Origin: a virus | Length of the DNA stretch: 64,000 bases | Strand: one strand, 5' to 3' | Virus record (IMG/VR): IMGVR_UViG_3300042907_001527 | Location: 40,000 to 103,999 of that record | Shown: positions 26,624 through 39,591 of the stretch, piece by piece | Layout: each line of letters opens with the position of its first letter | Position numbering within the stretch: the first letter of the stretch is position 1 | Position numbers and translations under genes: made by a program | Notes under the pieces: generated by a model | The model's database searches: none | The model's input: the letters and a program-made list of their open reading frames with translations, nothing else | Told to the model about the DNA's origin: nothing

Positions 26624-28300
26624 TTATGACTCTTTTCTTAAACTTCTTTCATAATGTTCAAATCTATCATGTTCTGTTGGTGTCATAAGTAATAATCCAG
26701 GATACAACTCACCTTTCTTAACCAACTGATACATATGGCTCATCCAAGTTTGTTCAAATGGATGTCCCCATGTTACATCTAAGAACATTTTTTGATTTCC
26801 TGTTCTTGTAACAATTTGAGGCCAATTACAATAATAAACATCACCTGTTACATAAGGAACTCCTTGAAATGAATTAATTGAATCATATACCGTTCTTGGA
26901 GCATTTGGGTCTAATCCTTGAACCGGTAATCTGTCTTTACCTGGCCAATACTTTTGTCTAACATCTTGAGGTACGTTATACCATGACCATTGAGTGCCAT
27001 TGTCTCCAAAGAATTCACTATAATTGAGTTTTAAAAAGTCAAAGTTTTCTTTTTTAACAATTTGTAATGTTTTTGAATATAAATTTGGAACATATCGGTT
27101 AAATCCATTTCTACATACATCTCCCTCTTTTGGATAAAAGAACATGTCATCTTCAAAAAACAAATAAAAATCTAAATCTGTTTCATTTTGGAAATGTTCG
27201 GCAATCCATTGACGGCCACCACAAATACCTAAATTATCTTTCTTAATGTGTTCAAACCCATTTTCTTCACACAATTTAGCATAGTCATCAAATGTTGATT
27301 CATCACTTGAGTTATCTAACAAAAACTTTTTAGTTTTTAATAAATAATCTTTATCGTAAGCATTCATGGATTCAATTAAAGTTGAAAATTGTTTTGGGCT
27401 ATTAAATGTAATCACATATAAACCAACTTTATTAACATCTAATGTGTTTGTTTCTTTATGAATATTTTCAGATTTAGGTTTCAATTCATTATTTTTTAAA
27501 TCTTCAAAAAACTTACCAACCAAACCATTAGATTCAATTTCAAAATAATTAACCATATCAGAGTGTTTATAACACATAATACTGAAGATTGATTCTTCGG
27601 TACCCATATAACCTTCATCTAAAGTTGTTTGTAACAAATTATAATATATTCCATTAATATCGCTAATGGTATGCTTTGGGCCACCAAAAAATCCACCTCT
27701 TGCGACTTTATTAACTTTTGAACCCGCAATAGAATTTAACTTATTATATTCAAAACCATGAATTTCAGTTTCAGCATCATATTGAAAACAAATAAATGAA
27801 AATTTTGAAATGTATTTTGACAAGTTATTTAAAACTTTATCATGAGTAAAATAACCTTGGTGAACGGTATTTGTTAAACCACCATCAATCCAAAACATAT
27901 ATTCAGAGTCAAATCTGTCCATAATCTTAGCATCGTGTAATAAGAATACCTTGGACATAACTAATGGATTATAATTTTCTAATCTACATTGTGTTGATTC
28001 TTTTAACCAACCAGATAAATTTTGCCAATTTTCATCAGTTCTAATTTTTTGAACTTTGTTAAAAAATTCAGATTCTCTAAACCAAGACATTGGTCTAAGA
28101 ATAAATTGTGTATTGTCATGACTTCTTCTTTCAAAAACAAATTTTTGAAGTTCTTCGTCTCCAAAAATAATCATATTCTCATCACACTTTAAAAGTTGTT
28201 CAAACTTATCTAAATAATGTTGGTAGGGTCTTGACCAACCTTCGGTTAATTCTTCTCGACCGATATCCCATATTCCTGTAACTAATGTTATATTACTCAT
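26624..28300 (-). CDS. Two-domain glycosyltransferase: HtrL/YibB-like plus GT-A domain
   Basis: TLVTGIWDIGRE, WIDGG, GGFFGG and TEE, then a C-terminal domain with FFEDD. Confidence 0.7.
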   Translation of the reverse strand: MSNITLVTGIWDIGREELTEGWSRPYQHYLDKFEQLLKCDENMIIFGDEELQKFVFERRSHDNTQFILRPMSWFRESEFFNKVQKIRTDENWQNLSGWLKESTQCRLENYNPLVMSKVFLLHDAKIMDRFDSEYMFWIDGGLTNTVHQGYFTHDKVLNNLSKYISKFSFICFQYDAETEIHGFEYNKLNSIAGSKVNKVARGGFFGGPKHTISDINGIYYNLLQTTLDEGYMGTEESIFSIMCYKHSDMVNYFEIESNGLVGKFFEDLKNNELKPKSENIHKETNTLDVNKVGLYVITFNSPKQFSTLIESMNAYDKDYLLKTKKFLLDNSSDESTFDDYAKLCEENGFEHIKKDNLGICGGRQWIAEHFQNETDLDFYLFFEDDMFFYPKEGDVCRNGFNRYVPNLYSKTLQIVKKENFDFLKLNYSEFFGDNGTQWSWYNVPQDVRQKYWPGKDRLPVQGLDPNAPRTVYDSINSFQGVPYVTGDVYYCNWPQIVTRTGNQKMFLDVTWGHPFEQTWMSHMYQLVKKGELYPGLLLMTPTEHDRFEHYERSLRKES

Positions 28301-28304
28301 ATAT

Positions 28305-35634: not shown

Positions 35635-38600
35635 TTATAATCCATATTTTGATTTATCTGCATTGAAGTTTTGTAGGACTTGAGATGCTGTTAATGATGT
35701 GTTGTATAAACGAGTTATACCAATTTTTCCATCAAACCATTGAGAAAACTCTCCACCATTATAACTACCAATGTAAAGTGGGTTAGTTACATTTAATATA
35801 CTTGCCAAACTATGACCCACACTTCCTATACTTACACCATTTACAAATGTTTCAAGTGTATTAGATGCGACATTTGTAAACACATAAACTATCTGATACC
35901 AAGTACCAATCGTCCCAACGTAGTTTGTACTATTAACAAACAATGATGAACCACTACCACTACCTGAACCCAATTGAGCGTAGTATGTAGTATTGGTTGT
36001 TCTGATACTATAACTTACATCTATAGTTAACCCTCCATTATCAAACTTTCCAAGTACAACATCATTACCTAAAACCGATTGATTAACCCACACTTCCATA
36101 GTCCAATCTCCACTTCCTGGTTCTAATAATGGATTATCGGCAACTTGAACTTGTGATGAAGTTCCATTATATGAAAAATATGGTGATGTGTATGTAATAC
36201 CCGACATTGAACCATTTAATCCATTTCCTGATAAATCATTTATTGTTGTACCAGTACCAGGGTAACTTGATGAATTACTTGGGTCGTAATATAAAACAAG
36301 ATTAGTGGTTACGGGAACTGCTGGCGTTGAGGTTGGAGTTGGTGTATTAGTTGGTGTTGTGGTTGTTGTTGGATTTGGTGTTGTCTCAAAAAATTCCAAA
36401 TACTCACCATTACCAACTGAAATATATTCATCAATATTACTTACTAAAACGGGATTAATTAGTACTGTTATTGGTGTTTCAGTAGGTGTTGGAGTGATAG
36501 TTGGAGTTATTGTAGGCGTAGGTGTTGCGGTTGGTTCTATAAATCTTGGGGCTAAATAATCGTATTGTTGTGTTATTTCAGTAAGATTTAATTGTCTGTT
36601 ATAGAAATACATGTTGGCGACATGACCCCAAGGTTGAGCAACAATATCATTATTACCCCATCCCCAATGTGTAGTTCCACCAGCACCCTCATTGATTGTA
36701 CTTCCCACCTGTGAACCATTTATGTAGAATCTTTGAGATGTATTTGTTCCGACTACTGCAAATTGAACCCAAACACCTGCCGAGGATGAAACATCATATC
36801 CTGAACTTACAAATCCTGTCGCCCAATATCCTAATGTGTTTGTTCCATTAGGTATAGTAATTGGTGTGATTTTAGGAGGTCCCTTTGTATAAAGTACTGT
36901 TCTAAACCCAGCATTACTAGGTATTAATCTTGCCCAAGTGATATATGTGTATCCTGAATTTGGTAATAAAGGTCCTGTTAAGTTGTAATCAACTCTATTA
37001 GTTCCTGTTGTACAATCAAAACATTTTATACCATTAAGAACTGTGTAAGTTGCACCAATTAATGTATGGTCATATCCACCTGTAATATCAAAAACAGTTG
37101 TTCCTGTTCCAGGATAACTTGAACTTTCATATGCATCAAGTTGAATAACCAATCCTGAAGTTACAAGATTAGGTGTTACAGATGGTGTTGGTGTGTTAGT
37201 ATTTGTTGGGGTTGATGTAATGGTTGTGGTATTAGTGTTTGTTGGTGTTGGAGTAATAATTTGGGTTTCGGTTGGAGTATTTGTAGGAGTTTCTGTATTT
37301 GTGGGGGTTGGTGTATTTGTTGGGGTTTCTGTATTAGTTGGAGTATTTGTAGGAGTTTCTGTATTAGTTGGTGTTGGTGTTGGTGTTTGTGTTGGAGTTT
37401 CGGTATTAGTTGGTGTTGGAGTTTGTGTGTTAGTTGGTGTATTGGTTGGAGTTTCTGTGTTTGTTGGGGTTTGAGTTACCGTTGGTGTGTTTGTTGGGGT
37501 TTGAGTTACCGTTGGTGTGTTTGTTGGGGTTTCTGTGTTTGTCGGAGTTTGAGTTACCGTTGGAGTTTGAGTTACCGTTGGTGTATTAGTTGGTGTTGCC
37601 GTATTAGTTGGAGTATTTGTCGGTGTAGGTGTCGGTTCAATTATTTCATAATACAAATCATTTGCAGGGATACTCAAATAATATAAATCATTATCAGGAA
37701 TTAAAATATAAGTTAAATCATTTCCTGGTATTGTTATTCTACAATTTAAACAATCAGGGTCTAATAAATTATATTTAAATTTTAATATTCTAAAGTTGTG
37801 TTTAATTTGTGAAGCATTTAATGGTTCAGTATACATTCTAAATGCACTAATTTCTCCAATCATACTACCACCAAAATATTCTTCCAATTTAATATGAGTT
37901 GTTAAACCCGAATAAATTGTATTGTCCAAATCATAAGTGGTTAAACTTTCAGGGTCTTGTTGATAAACAATTTCTTCTATTGTTGCAGGACACCCACCTG
38001 AGAATGTTAAGTTATCGTGAAGTCCTTGAGTTCCCCCACCAATTGAAATGTTATATCCAACACCAATTTGTTTTTCTTTTGGAGTGTTTAATAATCTTGG
38101 AATAATTTCTTCAAAGTTTTCAGTGACCATGAATAATTTTCCATTTACATAAAACTTAAGTGTCCCCAATCTAAACTTTTGTTCTTCGGTCCACATGTCT
38201 GTGAATGTTACAACTTCAGTTGAAGCTGGGTCATACTTCGCTTCATGGGTTATTGGAGGCTCAATTAAAGTAACACTTCTACCTTCGATTGTTGCATAAT
38301 ATACATCTTTAACAAGTAGACCAAGTCCACCTTTATCGTAGAGGTCACAGATATCCAACCATTCATATCTTTGGAATACGGCATCAATCTGAACCCAATG
38401 TTCGACATTTTGATATGTTGTCCCTGAGCAATCGTCAAATATACCTCTTGTTGAACACCATTCAGTTAATGAAGTTCCCGTTACATAAGTAATCCCTGTT
38501 AAACAAGTTCCCGTGCTTTCACACCCACCTGTTATTCTATATGTCTTAACACATAATCTTGGACTACCAGTATCACCACTTAATCTTAAAGACAACGCAT

Positions 38601-39591
38601 TTGAAACCTCATCATATAATGGGTCTTTTTCCGGATATTCTGCCGTTGTTGTACAATCACACTCACATCCACAAGTACAATTTGTAATCGTACCACCTGA
38701 TGGTTGATATACTTGAAGACATTGTGATGATGTATTGGCACTACTTGCACAACCACAAGTGTGCATACAAGTTAAACCTGATGTAACTCTTGTATATCCT
38801 GAATCTTGTTTTGGACTACCATCAGCATAATGATAAAATTTATTCTCGGCTCTTGCCCCCATGTAAAAGAACGTACCCTTATTGTCGGGATATCTATTGT
38901 TAAGTCCTCCTGATGTATCACCAGTCCATCTATATTTTAACATAAATTCAGCAGTCCAACCTAATGGAACTCTTTGAGGAAAAACTTGGTAATCATACCC
39001 CGATATTTTGTAAAACCCTTGGAAGAATCCACCTTGTAAGTTTGCAACATACCCAATATCTCCACCAACATTTTGATAATTTAAATCATAAGTATATGAG
39101 TTATCATTCCATAATCTGTTTTGAGTTGTAGTAAAACCTGTGATAGGATGAAGTTTCATTCTCCTGTCATATTTGTATCGACTAAACTTATCCGTTGTAC
39201 CTGAATATAATCCTGTTGTAATTTCTATTGTTTCTCCCGACATGTTTTGAACCAGTCCGTTGTCAATTCCTGTTAAACCAATATCACATAATTGTGTGAC
39301 GATTGGACAAAAGTTGTGGTCAATGTCATCAGGGTTCCAATAATTCTCTGAAACAATTGTTTGGTAATCAAAAGAACATGCTGATGTTTGACATAATGTT
39401 GTCCCTGAACTATTGAAGTCAAACTTAAATGGCATTCTGTTTCCATCTAATTCACCAATTAATAAAGGTGAAAAAACTACTTCTTGGTCATAATCTCTCT
39501 CGTCCGATGCTAAGCAAATGTCGGTGATTTCGTTAACAGGTTTTATTCCCCATTTACGAAAATTATACTGATTAATGTTTTGATATGCCAT
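35635..39591 (-). CDS. Large LamG/ConA-like lectin-domain virion protein with mucin-like linkers
   Basis: LamG motifs (KFYVNG...ISIGG...[16 protein letters not shown]...FYNRQL, FVNGVS...LYIG...RLYNTSL) separated by Thr/Pro tracts. The N-terminal region is Cys-rich. Confidence 0.8.
37171..37635 (-). repeat. Degenerate coding tandem repeat ([13 protein letters not shown], about 155 aa)
   Basis: Imperfect short repeats such as GTTGGTGT on the plus strand. Confidence 0.85.

Follow-up and report, generated by a model that had tools for sequence, protein, structure and literature searches.

Mucin-type O-glycosylation initiated by enzymes of the glycosyltransferase (GT) families GT60 and GT27 is regarded as a eukaryotic process based in the Golgi. 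Self-glycosylation by phages is, to our knowledge, documented for a few mycobacteriophages only. The window analysed here is a 64,000-nucleotide stretch of phage DNA, bases 40000-103999 of the 103,999-bp IMG/VR viral contig IMGVR_UViG_3300042907_001527, in which a GT60 gene and three partner transferase genes directly follow a run of co-oriented genes whose products carry long threonine- and proline-rich (T/P) tracts. We consider it probable that the phage encodes a cytoplasmic mucin-type O-glycosylation system acting on threonine in these tracts, which would serve as linkers in fibres; our literature searches found no account of a GT60-type system from either phages or bacteria.

In protists, GT60 members form N-acetylglucosamine (GlcNAc)-alpha-O-Thr on Trypanosoma cruzi mucins and modify Dictyostelium mucin domains (PMC9472816, PMC8724618). 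These enzymes, TcOGNT1/2 of T. cruzi and the Golgi polypeptide alpha-GlcNAc transferase (pp-alphaGlcNAcT) of Dictyostelium, act on dense Thr/Pro-rich acceptors, the first sugar being extended by further transferases, as is proposed here for the phage (PMC9472816, PMC8724618). The phage enzyme belongs to the same Pfam family and shares the DxH motif. The protist enzymes, however, are Golgi type II membrane proteins working on secreted or glycosylphosphatidylinositol-anchored proteins, whereas the phage GT60 is soluble, would act in the bacterial cytoplasm and has an extra C-terminal beta domain that they lack. Another member, Gnt1 of the Skp1 pathway, is itself soluble and cytoplasmic, and a bifunctional two-domain extender (PgtA) acts after it (PMC9472816, PMC8724618). 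The phage cassette parallels this with a soluble GT60 and a two-domain partner predicted to be an extender, though the likeness is architectural only: the Skp1 extender joins GT2 and GT74 domains and the phage extender HtrL-like and GT2-like ones, and Skp1 is modified on one hydroxyproline, which needs a prolyl hydroxylase, whereas a search for PF13640-type hydroxylases found none in the phage contig and the candidate acceptors comprise hundreds of repeat residues. Enzyme pairs are often fused (PMC8724618), and in some genomes the phage partner at 26624-28300 occurs as separate genes or carries an additional fusion. The PsA spacer of Dictyostelium is described as a PTVT repeat bearing O-GlcNAc, a parallel that carries no weight in the argument here.

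Animal GT27 polypeptide N-acetylgalactosaminyltransferases (ppGalNAc-transferases) are the best structural matches of the phage GT60 model (template-modelling score ~0.5, E 1e-10), resembling it in the GT-A fold, the DxH motif and, as proposed, Thr/Pro-rich substrates, but they form a separate CAZy family with ~12% identity, a UDP-GalNAc donor, a ricin-type lectin domain and a Golgi location. Among phages, the mycobacteriophages Che8, Corndog and Myrna are reported to glycosylate their own structural proteins in the host cytoplasm with their own GTs (Freeman et al. 2023, cited in PMC12363180 and PMC12582341); the targets in that case are capsid and tail-tube proteins, the GTs (Che8 gp110, Corndog gp38) are unrelated, and neither GT60 nor T/P tracts are reported. 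Giant viruses (chlorovirus Vp54; Mimivirus fibrils and R699) use soluble viral GTs and sugar pathways to decorate virion proteins outside the endoplasmic reticulum and Golgi, though with eukaryotic hosts, other linkages (atypical N-linked on Vp54) and no GT60 initiator. The jumbo phage XacN1 has a homologous cassette (GT60 46%, the 291-aa partner p291 30% and the 558-aa partner p558 41.5% identical), many [TPTx]n tracts and Schiff-positive virions (PMC5852040), while differing from the window phage in its high GC content, its distant sheath and polymerase, a carbamoyltransferase within the cassette and the absence of a detectable GT25.

The GT60 cassette and its candidate acceptors

The gene at 29904-31169 (minus strand) encodes a soluble GT60-family glycosyltransferase, predicted to be an initiating polypeptide N-acetylhexosamine (GlcNAc) transferase. 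An initial annotation had recognised the family from the sequence, and a hidden Markov model search bears this out: PF11397 matches at E 1e-64 and 219.7 bits against a cut-off of 21, a result confirmed on the raw contig, and phrog_24687 matches at E 2e-167. The residues D92-S-H94 (the DxH motif), W101, D102 and E205 are invariant among 14 homologues that are 23-91% identical, with H229 conserved in at least 90%, and they appear to correspond to catalytic residues of characterised members. Sequence searches of the PDB with the protein and with the 14-sequence profile gave no match even at E 1. The AlphaFold (AF2) model (pLDDT 87.2) has a GT-A fold related to that of the GT27 ppGalNAc-transferases; almost all of its top ~47 PDB matches in Foldseek are such enzymes (T1, T2, T4, T7, T10, T12, PGANT9 and TgGalNAc-T3; E 1e-10 to 1e-8), in agreement with the published kinship of GT60 and GT27 (PMC8724618). 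The extra beta-rich domain at aa ~325-415 (window 29904-30200) has no family match and, going by the model, may be a substrate-binding module. The site it occupies is the one at which animal ppGalNAc-transferases carry their ricin lectin.

The candidate acceptors lie immediately upstream. Four co-oriented minus-strand open reading frames (ORFs) between 31261 and 39591 together hold 669 T/P-tract residues, in keeping with the several hundred counted by the initial annotation, and these comprise 322 Thr (48%), 140 Pro (21%), 68 Asn, 38 Val and 18 Ser, the most frequent unit being TPTxTPT with N, V or Q at x. Dense, clustered threonine with proline in extended repeats, as expected of mucin-type acceptors, is thus found in four adjacent ORFs. 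The underlying DNA consists of degenerate, imperfect repeats of 18, 30 or 36 nt, with periods that are multiples of 6 nt and 60-100% matches. Seven T/P-tract ORFs are present in the contig as a whole, three of them earlier than this block, and a complete relative (G006; 321,403 bp with terminal repeats, syntenic across the entire contig, GT60 71% identical) has 16 with 3,122 tract residues. Since random viral loci (717 kb) contain no ORF with at least 30 tract residues, this load is far beyond chance.

The largest product of the block is a fibre-like protein of 1318 aa (35635-39591, minus strand), a candidate glycan acceptor that ends in two ConA-like Laminin_G_3 domains (E 5e-25) and whose T/P tracts span aa 650-807, 1018-1044 and 1067-1096. 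Its C-terminal part matches phrog_8510, 'virion structural protein' (E 1e-16); its N-terminal 640 aa have no match among 50,697 phage records, so that a virion role is not anchored through the N-terminus. Next come a 164-aa Ser/Thr/Asn-rich protein that has neither a T/P tract nor a family match (35116-35610, minus strand) and a 185-aa Cys-containing protein with a single T/P linker at aa 62-104 (34557-35114, minus strand), which is kept at ~185-190 aa in nearly all close relatives. The most mucin-like candidate, judged by composition, is a 236-aa protein (33797-34507, minus strand) of which 72% is T/P tract (169 residues, 86 of them Thr). The last, of 800 aa (31261-33663, minus strand), is modular, with four T/P tracts (242 residues) joining duplicated globular modules, and its modules and length vary widely in relatives (97-1095 aa). 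Lectin-like domains linked by the tracts, as the initial annotation had them, are therefore present in the 1318-aa protein, while the C-terminal domain of the 800-aa protein gives only a weak, sub-threshold match to Lcl_C/DUF1566. From their position and the PHROG match, we infer that the T/P proteins are parts of the virion. A 141-aa plus-strand ORF (37261-37686) with abundant Cys, Trp, Gly and Arg is the antisense of T/P repeat DNA and not a gene.

The heptamer TATTTAT stands 11-23 nt upstream of the starts at 39591, 35610, 34507 and 33663 (four of the five genes in the T/P block) and of that at 26607, and is absent upstream of the transferase starts at 31169, 29904, 29180 and 28300; a T-rich stretch follows the 800-aa gene. 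With the heptamer near acceptor genes and none at enzyme genes, the two sets may be transcribed separately. TATTTAT was also considered as a late promoter and set aside, its 44 copies in an AT-rich 64 kb being possibly mere chance, and it lends no support to the label 'late' that the initial annotation gave these genes.

Three partner genes follow GT60 on the same strand. The first (29170-29904) encodes a GT25-family glycosyltransferase, an accessory and predicted extender (PF01755, E 9e-15, 55.5 bits, cut-off 24). The second (28305-29180) encodes p291, an accessory putative transferase that has no Pfam match and is a divergent HtrL/YibB-like paralogue, its family profile aligning over its whole length with the HtrL-like domain at aa 3-255 of the third (hhalign 98%, E 2e-13). 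The third (26624-28300) encodes p558, in which an HtrL/YibB-like N-domain is joined to a GT2-like GT-A C-domain with an EDD motif. Its N-half matches HtrL_YibB (PF09612) at E 4e-18 and 66.5 bits (cut-off 24.1), below the NCBIfam equivalog cut-offs, and its C-half resembles viral GT2-bearing clusters of the ESM Atlas (GT2 in 25% of one cluster, a lead only). The protein models as two GT-A domains (pLDDT 80.6) with structural matches to human LH3, Mimivirus R699, E. coli K4 chondroitin polymerase, LARGE1, PmHS2 (heparosan synthase 2) and COLGALT1, and is predicted to be a bifunctional chain extender. The gene order and the GT60 and GT25 assignments of the initial annotation stand, while its two HtrL-like transferases turn out to be this two-domain enzyme, which is more than HtrL-like, and a divergent paralogue.

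Among 73 close relatives with sufficient downstream sequence, p558 is present in 72/73, p291 in 63/73 and GT25 in 53/73, which marks GT60 and the two-domain enzyme as a conserved core and the rest as a swappable periphery. XacN1-type phages have p558 homologues 38-41.5% identical and p291 homologues 27-30% identical (XacN1, Xoo-sp13, RAS14); GT25 was not detected in the XacN1-type cassette (tblastn), nor in cassettes of a second, G043-type lineage. The chain Thr-GlcNAc-Gal-(Col/Fuc) suggested by the initial annotation is not upheld, GT25 being dispensable and the link to GT11 and colitose positional only.

Cassette structure varies between genomes. The two domains of p558 are separate adjacent genes in some bacteria, and in several phages the homologue is ~790 aa long with an additional 230-aa N-terminal part (fission and fusion examples are G132:C1:1046754-1048816, G133:C22:238014-240076, L212 16041-18407 and L218 2577-4946). 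A 765-aa carbamoyltransferase gene lies between the GT60 and HtrL-like genes at L003 13409-15706 (XacN1 ORF333), L084 13390-15687 and L085 13509-15809; it is absent from the window, and its presence in Xanthomonas and Stenotrophomonas phages suggests carbamoylated sugars in that lineage. Directly after the window cassette lies a gene for a 125-aa protein (26230-26607, minus strand), and in some relatives this domain is fused to 80-122 T/P residues (L224 13574-14791, L219 15116-16402, G006 72242-74356).

The pathway that we propose would begin during infection, when the soluble GT60 (29904-31169) would attach a first sugar to threonines of the [TPTx]n tracts through their hydroxyl groups; by family precedent, this sugar would most likely be alpha-GlcNAc, donated by UDP-GlcNAc (PMC9472816, PMC8724618). 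The acceptors would be the linkers between globular modules of the fibre-like proteins encoded at 31261-39591 and by the three earlier contig genes. The two-domain GT-A enzyme (26624-28300) would next lengthen the chain, GT25, p291 and possibly GTs encoded further on, at 42-60 kb, would diversify it with phage-made GDP- and UDP-sugars, and the glycosylated linkers would finish on the particle.

Co-occurrence of GT60 and T/P tracts

GT60 homologues occur in 4 of 50,697 phage records, those of the jumbo phages XacN1, Xoo-sp13, CM1 and RAS14 (43-49% identity). All four (4/4) also encode p558 homologues, and the p291 gene adjoins GT60 in the 3/3 examined. Searched as a DNA pattern, TPTxTPT has 51 sites in XacN1, 51 in Xoo-sp13 and 22 in RAS14, against 0 for a reversed-pattern control; the XacN1 sites form extended [TPTx]n tracts within big hypothetical proteins of the structural region, such as ORF369-372, whose genes adjoin that for sheath completion, and the 3313-aa ORF325, whose gene adjoins the cassette; ORF232-237 and ORF384 also bear [TPTx]n tracts, and the two-domain enzyme of XacN1 is ORF330. 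Neither TPTxTPT sites nor PF11397 were found in 1.95 Mb of LR756508, Microcystis phage Mel-JY01, Atu_ph07, SCTP-2 and RaK2, and such sites are therefore present in 3/3 GT60-positive phages versus 0/5 GT60-negative jumbo or large phages (p = 0.018). The pairing does not simply follow genome kinship, since the contractile tail sheath of the window phage (13483-16704) is nearer to those of LR756508 and Mel-JY01 (E 1e-58) and RaK2 (6e-29) than to those of XacN1 and RAS14 (1e-17), and its family-B polymerase (PolB) has no counterpart in XacN1. Tracts and cassette, shared with distant phages and both missing from nearer relatives, travel together.

Virions of XacN1 have been stained. Yoshikawa et al. 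showed at least two glycoprotein bands with Schiff reagent and proposed ORF328 or ORF334 as the maker of the glycoproteins (PMC5852040). ORF334 is the GT60 homologue; the authors mention neither GT60, T/P tracts nor a conserved cassette (PMC5852040).

The association recurs when contigs are sampled by their tracts. Searchable IMG/VR contigs were chosen only by the pattern TPTxTPTxTPT, and the counts that follow hold among the matches listed. PF11397 is found in 16/76 of these contigs and, at lengths of at least 30 kb, in 15/43, compared with 0/32 for contigs chosen by a random AT-rich 14-mer (p = 8e-5); 11 of the 16 positives belong to the clade of the window phage, and in the other 5 GT60 is 26-37% identical. 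Co-occurrence across phage genomes, which the initial annotation had named as a check, is seen in this comparison as in that of the jumbo phages.

Sampling by GT60 alone, with each locus scored for an ORF of at least 50 T/P residues within 10 kb, leads to the same association in several lineages. In the window clade such an ORF lies near GT60 in 70/80 loci, always upstream and on the same strand, with a widely variable length. A second (G043-like) lineage, with GT60 37-45% identical, has one in 49/66 loci despite a different gene order, no p558 partner and pure (TP)n linkers, the T/P gene lying just downstream of GT60. In one of its contigs (L382 4573-13667) the (TP)n dipeptide linkers belong to fibre-like proteins rich in Cys. 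GT60 is immediately preceded there by a separate gene for a ConA-like protein of 244 aa, and immediately followed by a 265-aa ORF that contains an EDD motif. XacN1-like loci have a T/P ORF within 10 kb in 4/18 cases and TPTxTPT sites in 14/18 whole contigs, with 76 and 90 sites in two complete genomes of ~315 kb. Among bacterial genomes and metagenome-assembled genomes (MAGs) of many phyla the count is 21/80 loci, whereas control regions taken elsewhere in those bacterial genomes give 0/31 (p about 0.001-0.002) and random viral loci 0/80.

Several of the bacterial T/P proteins beside GT60 start with a twin-arginine (Tat)-like signal such as RRRLLQ, RRDFIRKG, RRRFVRL or SRRQFVKY. The loci (L482 4189-5064; L484 11411-12115, minus strand; L490 4503-5015; L495 8436-9986; L503 11563-12243; L514 8460-10001) come from MAG or chromosomal sequence of Vicinamibacterales, Verrucomicrobia, Deltaproteobacteria and Acidimicrobiaceae. 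As Tat exports folded proteins, such signals would be compatible with sugars being attached in the cytoplasm, ahead of export.

It might be that GT60 acts on protein but not on tract threonine, its acceptor being hydroxyproline in the manner of Skp1 and Gnt1, serine, or another phage or host protein, with the tracts at most docking sites. One characterised GT60 member does modify the hydroxyproline of a single protein (PMC8724618), the proline content of the tracts would suit such an enzyme, and the fold does not reveal the substrate. Against this, serine is rare in the tracts (18/669), and the neighbour of GT60 that is conserved across lineages is the T/P tract itself rather than any single globular domain. 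A search limited to PF13640-type prolyl hydroxylases, in which the controls matched, found none in the contig (G000), in the complete GT60-positive relatives G006, G109 and G120, or in XacN1, and the missing prolyl 4-hydroxylase-type gene makes a hydroxyproline acceptor less likely. We regard an acceptor other than tract threonine as unlikely.

Possible sugar supply and other possible targets

A block of sugar-nucleotide synthesis and GT genes occupies 42429-60504 on the plus strand, starting 2.8 kb beyond 39591. The initial annotation had counted about nine further GTs with sugar genes from 3 kb away, in line with the 8-9 GT genes found (four or five GT2, a GT2_5+GT4 fusion, two GT1/GT4-like and one GT11). 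The fusion, a 542-aa protein encoded at 44994-46622, is another two-domain transferase. The block further encodes a UDP-Glc-dehydrogenase-like protein, two DegT aminotransferases, a GNAT protein, a CmcI methyltransferase, a GDP-fucose-synthase-like (Fcl-like) epimerase and Gmd; among these are the enzymes for GDP-6-deoxyhexose and amino sugars. Genes for an exonuclease, a dUTPase and PhoH interrupt the run. The block is syntenic in G006, where it lies within a single 60-kb stretch together with eight T/P genes, the GT60 cassette and one T/P fusion. It may supply donors and further extenders to the proposed pathway, its putative tie to the tracts being one of position.

No hydrophobic segment or hydrophobic N-terminus was found in the T/P, GT or sugar-gene proteins by a Kyte-Doolittle scan (19-aa window, >=1.6), as the initial annotation had supposed in noting no signal peptide or membrane anchor. 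The 104-kb contig (28% of the genome) likewise contains no membrane-bound initiating or polyprenyl-phosphate transferase, flippase or polymerase of the Wzx/Wzy type.

These results bear on the possibility that the tracts are unmodified flexible linkers and that the cassette and sugar block remodel a host envelope glycan (lipopolysaccharide (LPS) or capsule), for instance against superinfection, their proximity to fibre genes reflecting a shared module position. In jumbo cyanophages, Iyer et al. interpret clusters of GT and sugar genes as serving to modify surface polysaccharides (PMC7824862), the names HtrL/YibB and GT25 come from LPS gene clusters, colitose and amino-sugar genes are typical of the O-antigen, and T/P linkers are also present in phages without GT60. 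The contig, however, has none of the membrane machinery just listed, and GT60 is folded like the polypeptide transferases. The link between GT60 and T/P tracts persists in lineages that differ in gene order and, by comparison with matched controls, in bacteria, while the GT60-negative relatives are entirely without tracts; XacN1, moreover, shows glycoprotein bands without having the big sugar block. Remodelling of a host glycan accordingly seems improbable to us.

Glycosylation of hypermodified bases in the phage's own DNA, by which restriction would be evaded, is a further conceivable role and one to which we give very little credence. Many phage GTs do act in this way, a dUTPase/dCTP-deaminase-like gene stands within the sugar block, and both G006 and XacN1 encode ThyA-family enzymes; these, however, score as ordinary thymidylate synthases (E 1e-96) and are uninformative. 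Two publications on DNA-glycosylating viral GTs mention no cassettes with GT60, HtrL or carbamoyltransferase, the fold of GT60 matches polypeptide transferases, and the stain of XacN1 sits on protein bands.

The phage and the meaning of the proposed system

CheckV puts the completeness of the contig at 28%, which implies a genome of ~350 kb; its GC content is ~30%. Besides the sheath gene it carries those for a tail tube (12020-12508) and a T4-type baseplate protein (11148-11891), and in G006 the tail module is flanked by further T/P genes. Other products of the contig are PhoH, a superoxide dismutase, an SNF2 helicase and the family-B polymerase, and this combination with a contractile tail marks it as part of the genome of an uncultured jumbo myophage of low GC content. 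The dismutase belongs to a 509-aa protein (20426-21955) in which a full Fe/Mn superoxide dismutase (aa 36-226) precedes ~280 aa without a Pfam match. The best matches in the genome collection (L448-L455; GT60 68-72%, p558 ~60% identical, GC ~0.34) are short low-GC contigs in MAGs of Saprospiraceae, Bacteroidia and 'Melainabacteria'. They are probably phage DNA binned with the host, and hint at a freshwater Saprospiraceae-like member of the Bacteroidota as the host of the window phage.

The claim of the initial annotation that the cassette glycosylates the adjacent tracts in the cytoplasm gains partial support from the co-occurrence, from the ppGalNAc-transferase-like fold and from the periodic acid-Schiff-positive virion proteins of XacN1. 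Several points weigh against it. The contig covers 28% of the phage genome; the donor sugar and the acceptor residue are predictions that sequence alone does not settle; the T/P proteins, the ConA-like domain match excepted, have no match to proven virion proteins; and the Schiff-positive bands of XacN1 may or may not be T/P proteins. Some complete phages have T/P tracts without GT60 (G002, G022, G023, G026, G039, G053), which means that such linkers do not need it, and conversely a complete GT60-positive phage of 61 kb (G125) has no TPTxTPT site, and 17/66 G043-like loci are without a T/P ORF of at least 50 residues within 10 kb. Many of the sampled contigs, finally, come from few clades and are not independent, so that fewer independent events lie behind the counts than the figures suggest. 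The functions that the initial annotation gave to the glycan (stiffening, protease resistance and mimicry) are speculation.

More tentatively, and with rather less confidence than we place in the phage pathway, GT60 and the two-domain GT-A enzyme might form a widespread prokaryotic module for mucin-type O-glycosylation of T/P tracts in the cytoplasm, serving jumbo phages on their fibres and bacteria of several phyla on T/P-rich proteins, of which those with Tat-like signals could receive their sugars in the folded state and be exported afterwards. The module might also be the prokaryotic root of the eukaryotic GT60 and GT27 mucin-initiating enzymes. The proposed role of the phage cassette is directly testable, as XacN1 can be cultured and its glycoprotein bands have already been seen.

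If glycosylation of the tracts is confirmed, an abundant group of freshwater jumbo phages would build bottle-brush glycoprotein linkers in the bacterial cytoplasm, and XacN1, Xoo-sp13, CM1 and RAS14, phages of Xanthomonas and Stenotrophomonas that are in culture, would do likewise, with implications for how phages adsorb, how stable their particles are and how antibodies recognise them. The cassette would also provide soluble enzymes for the production of mucin-like glycopeptides in bacteria, and the origin of the eukaryotic mucin-initiating enzymes would become testable.

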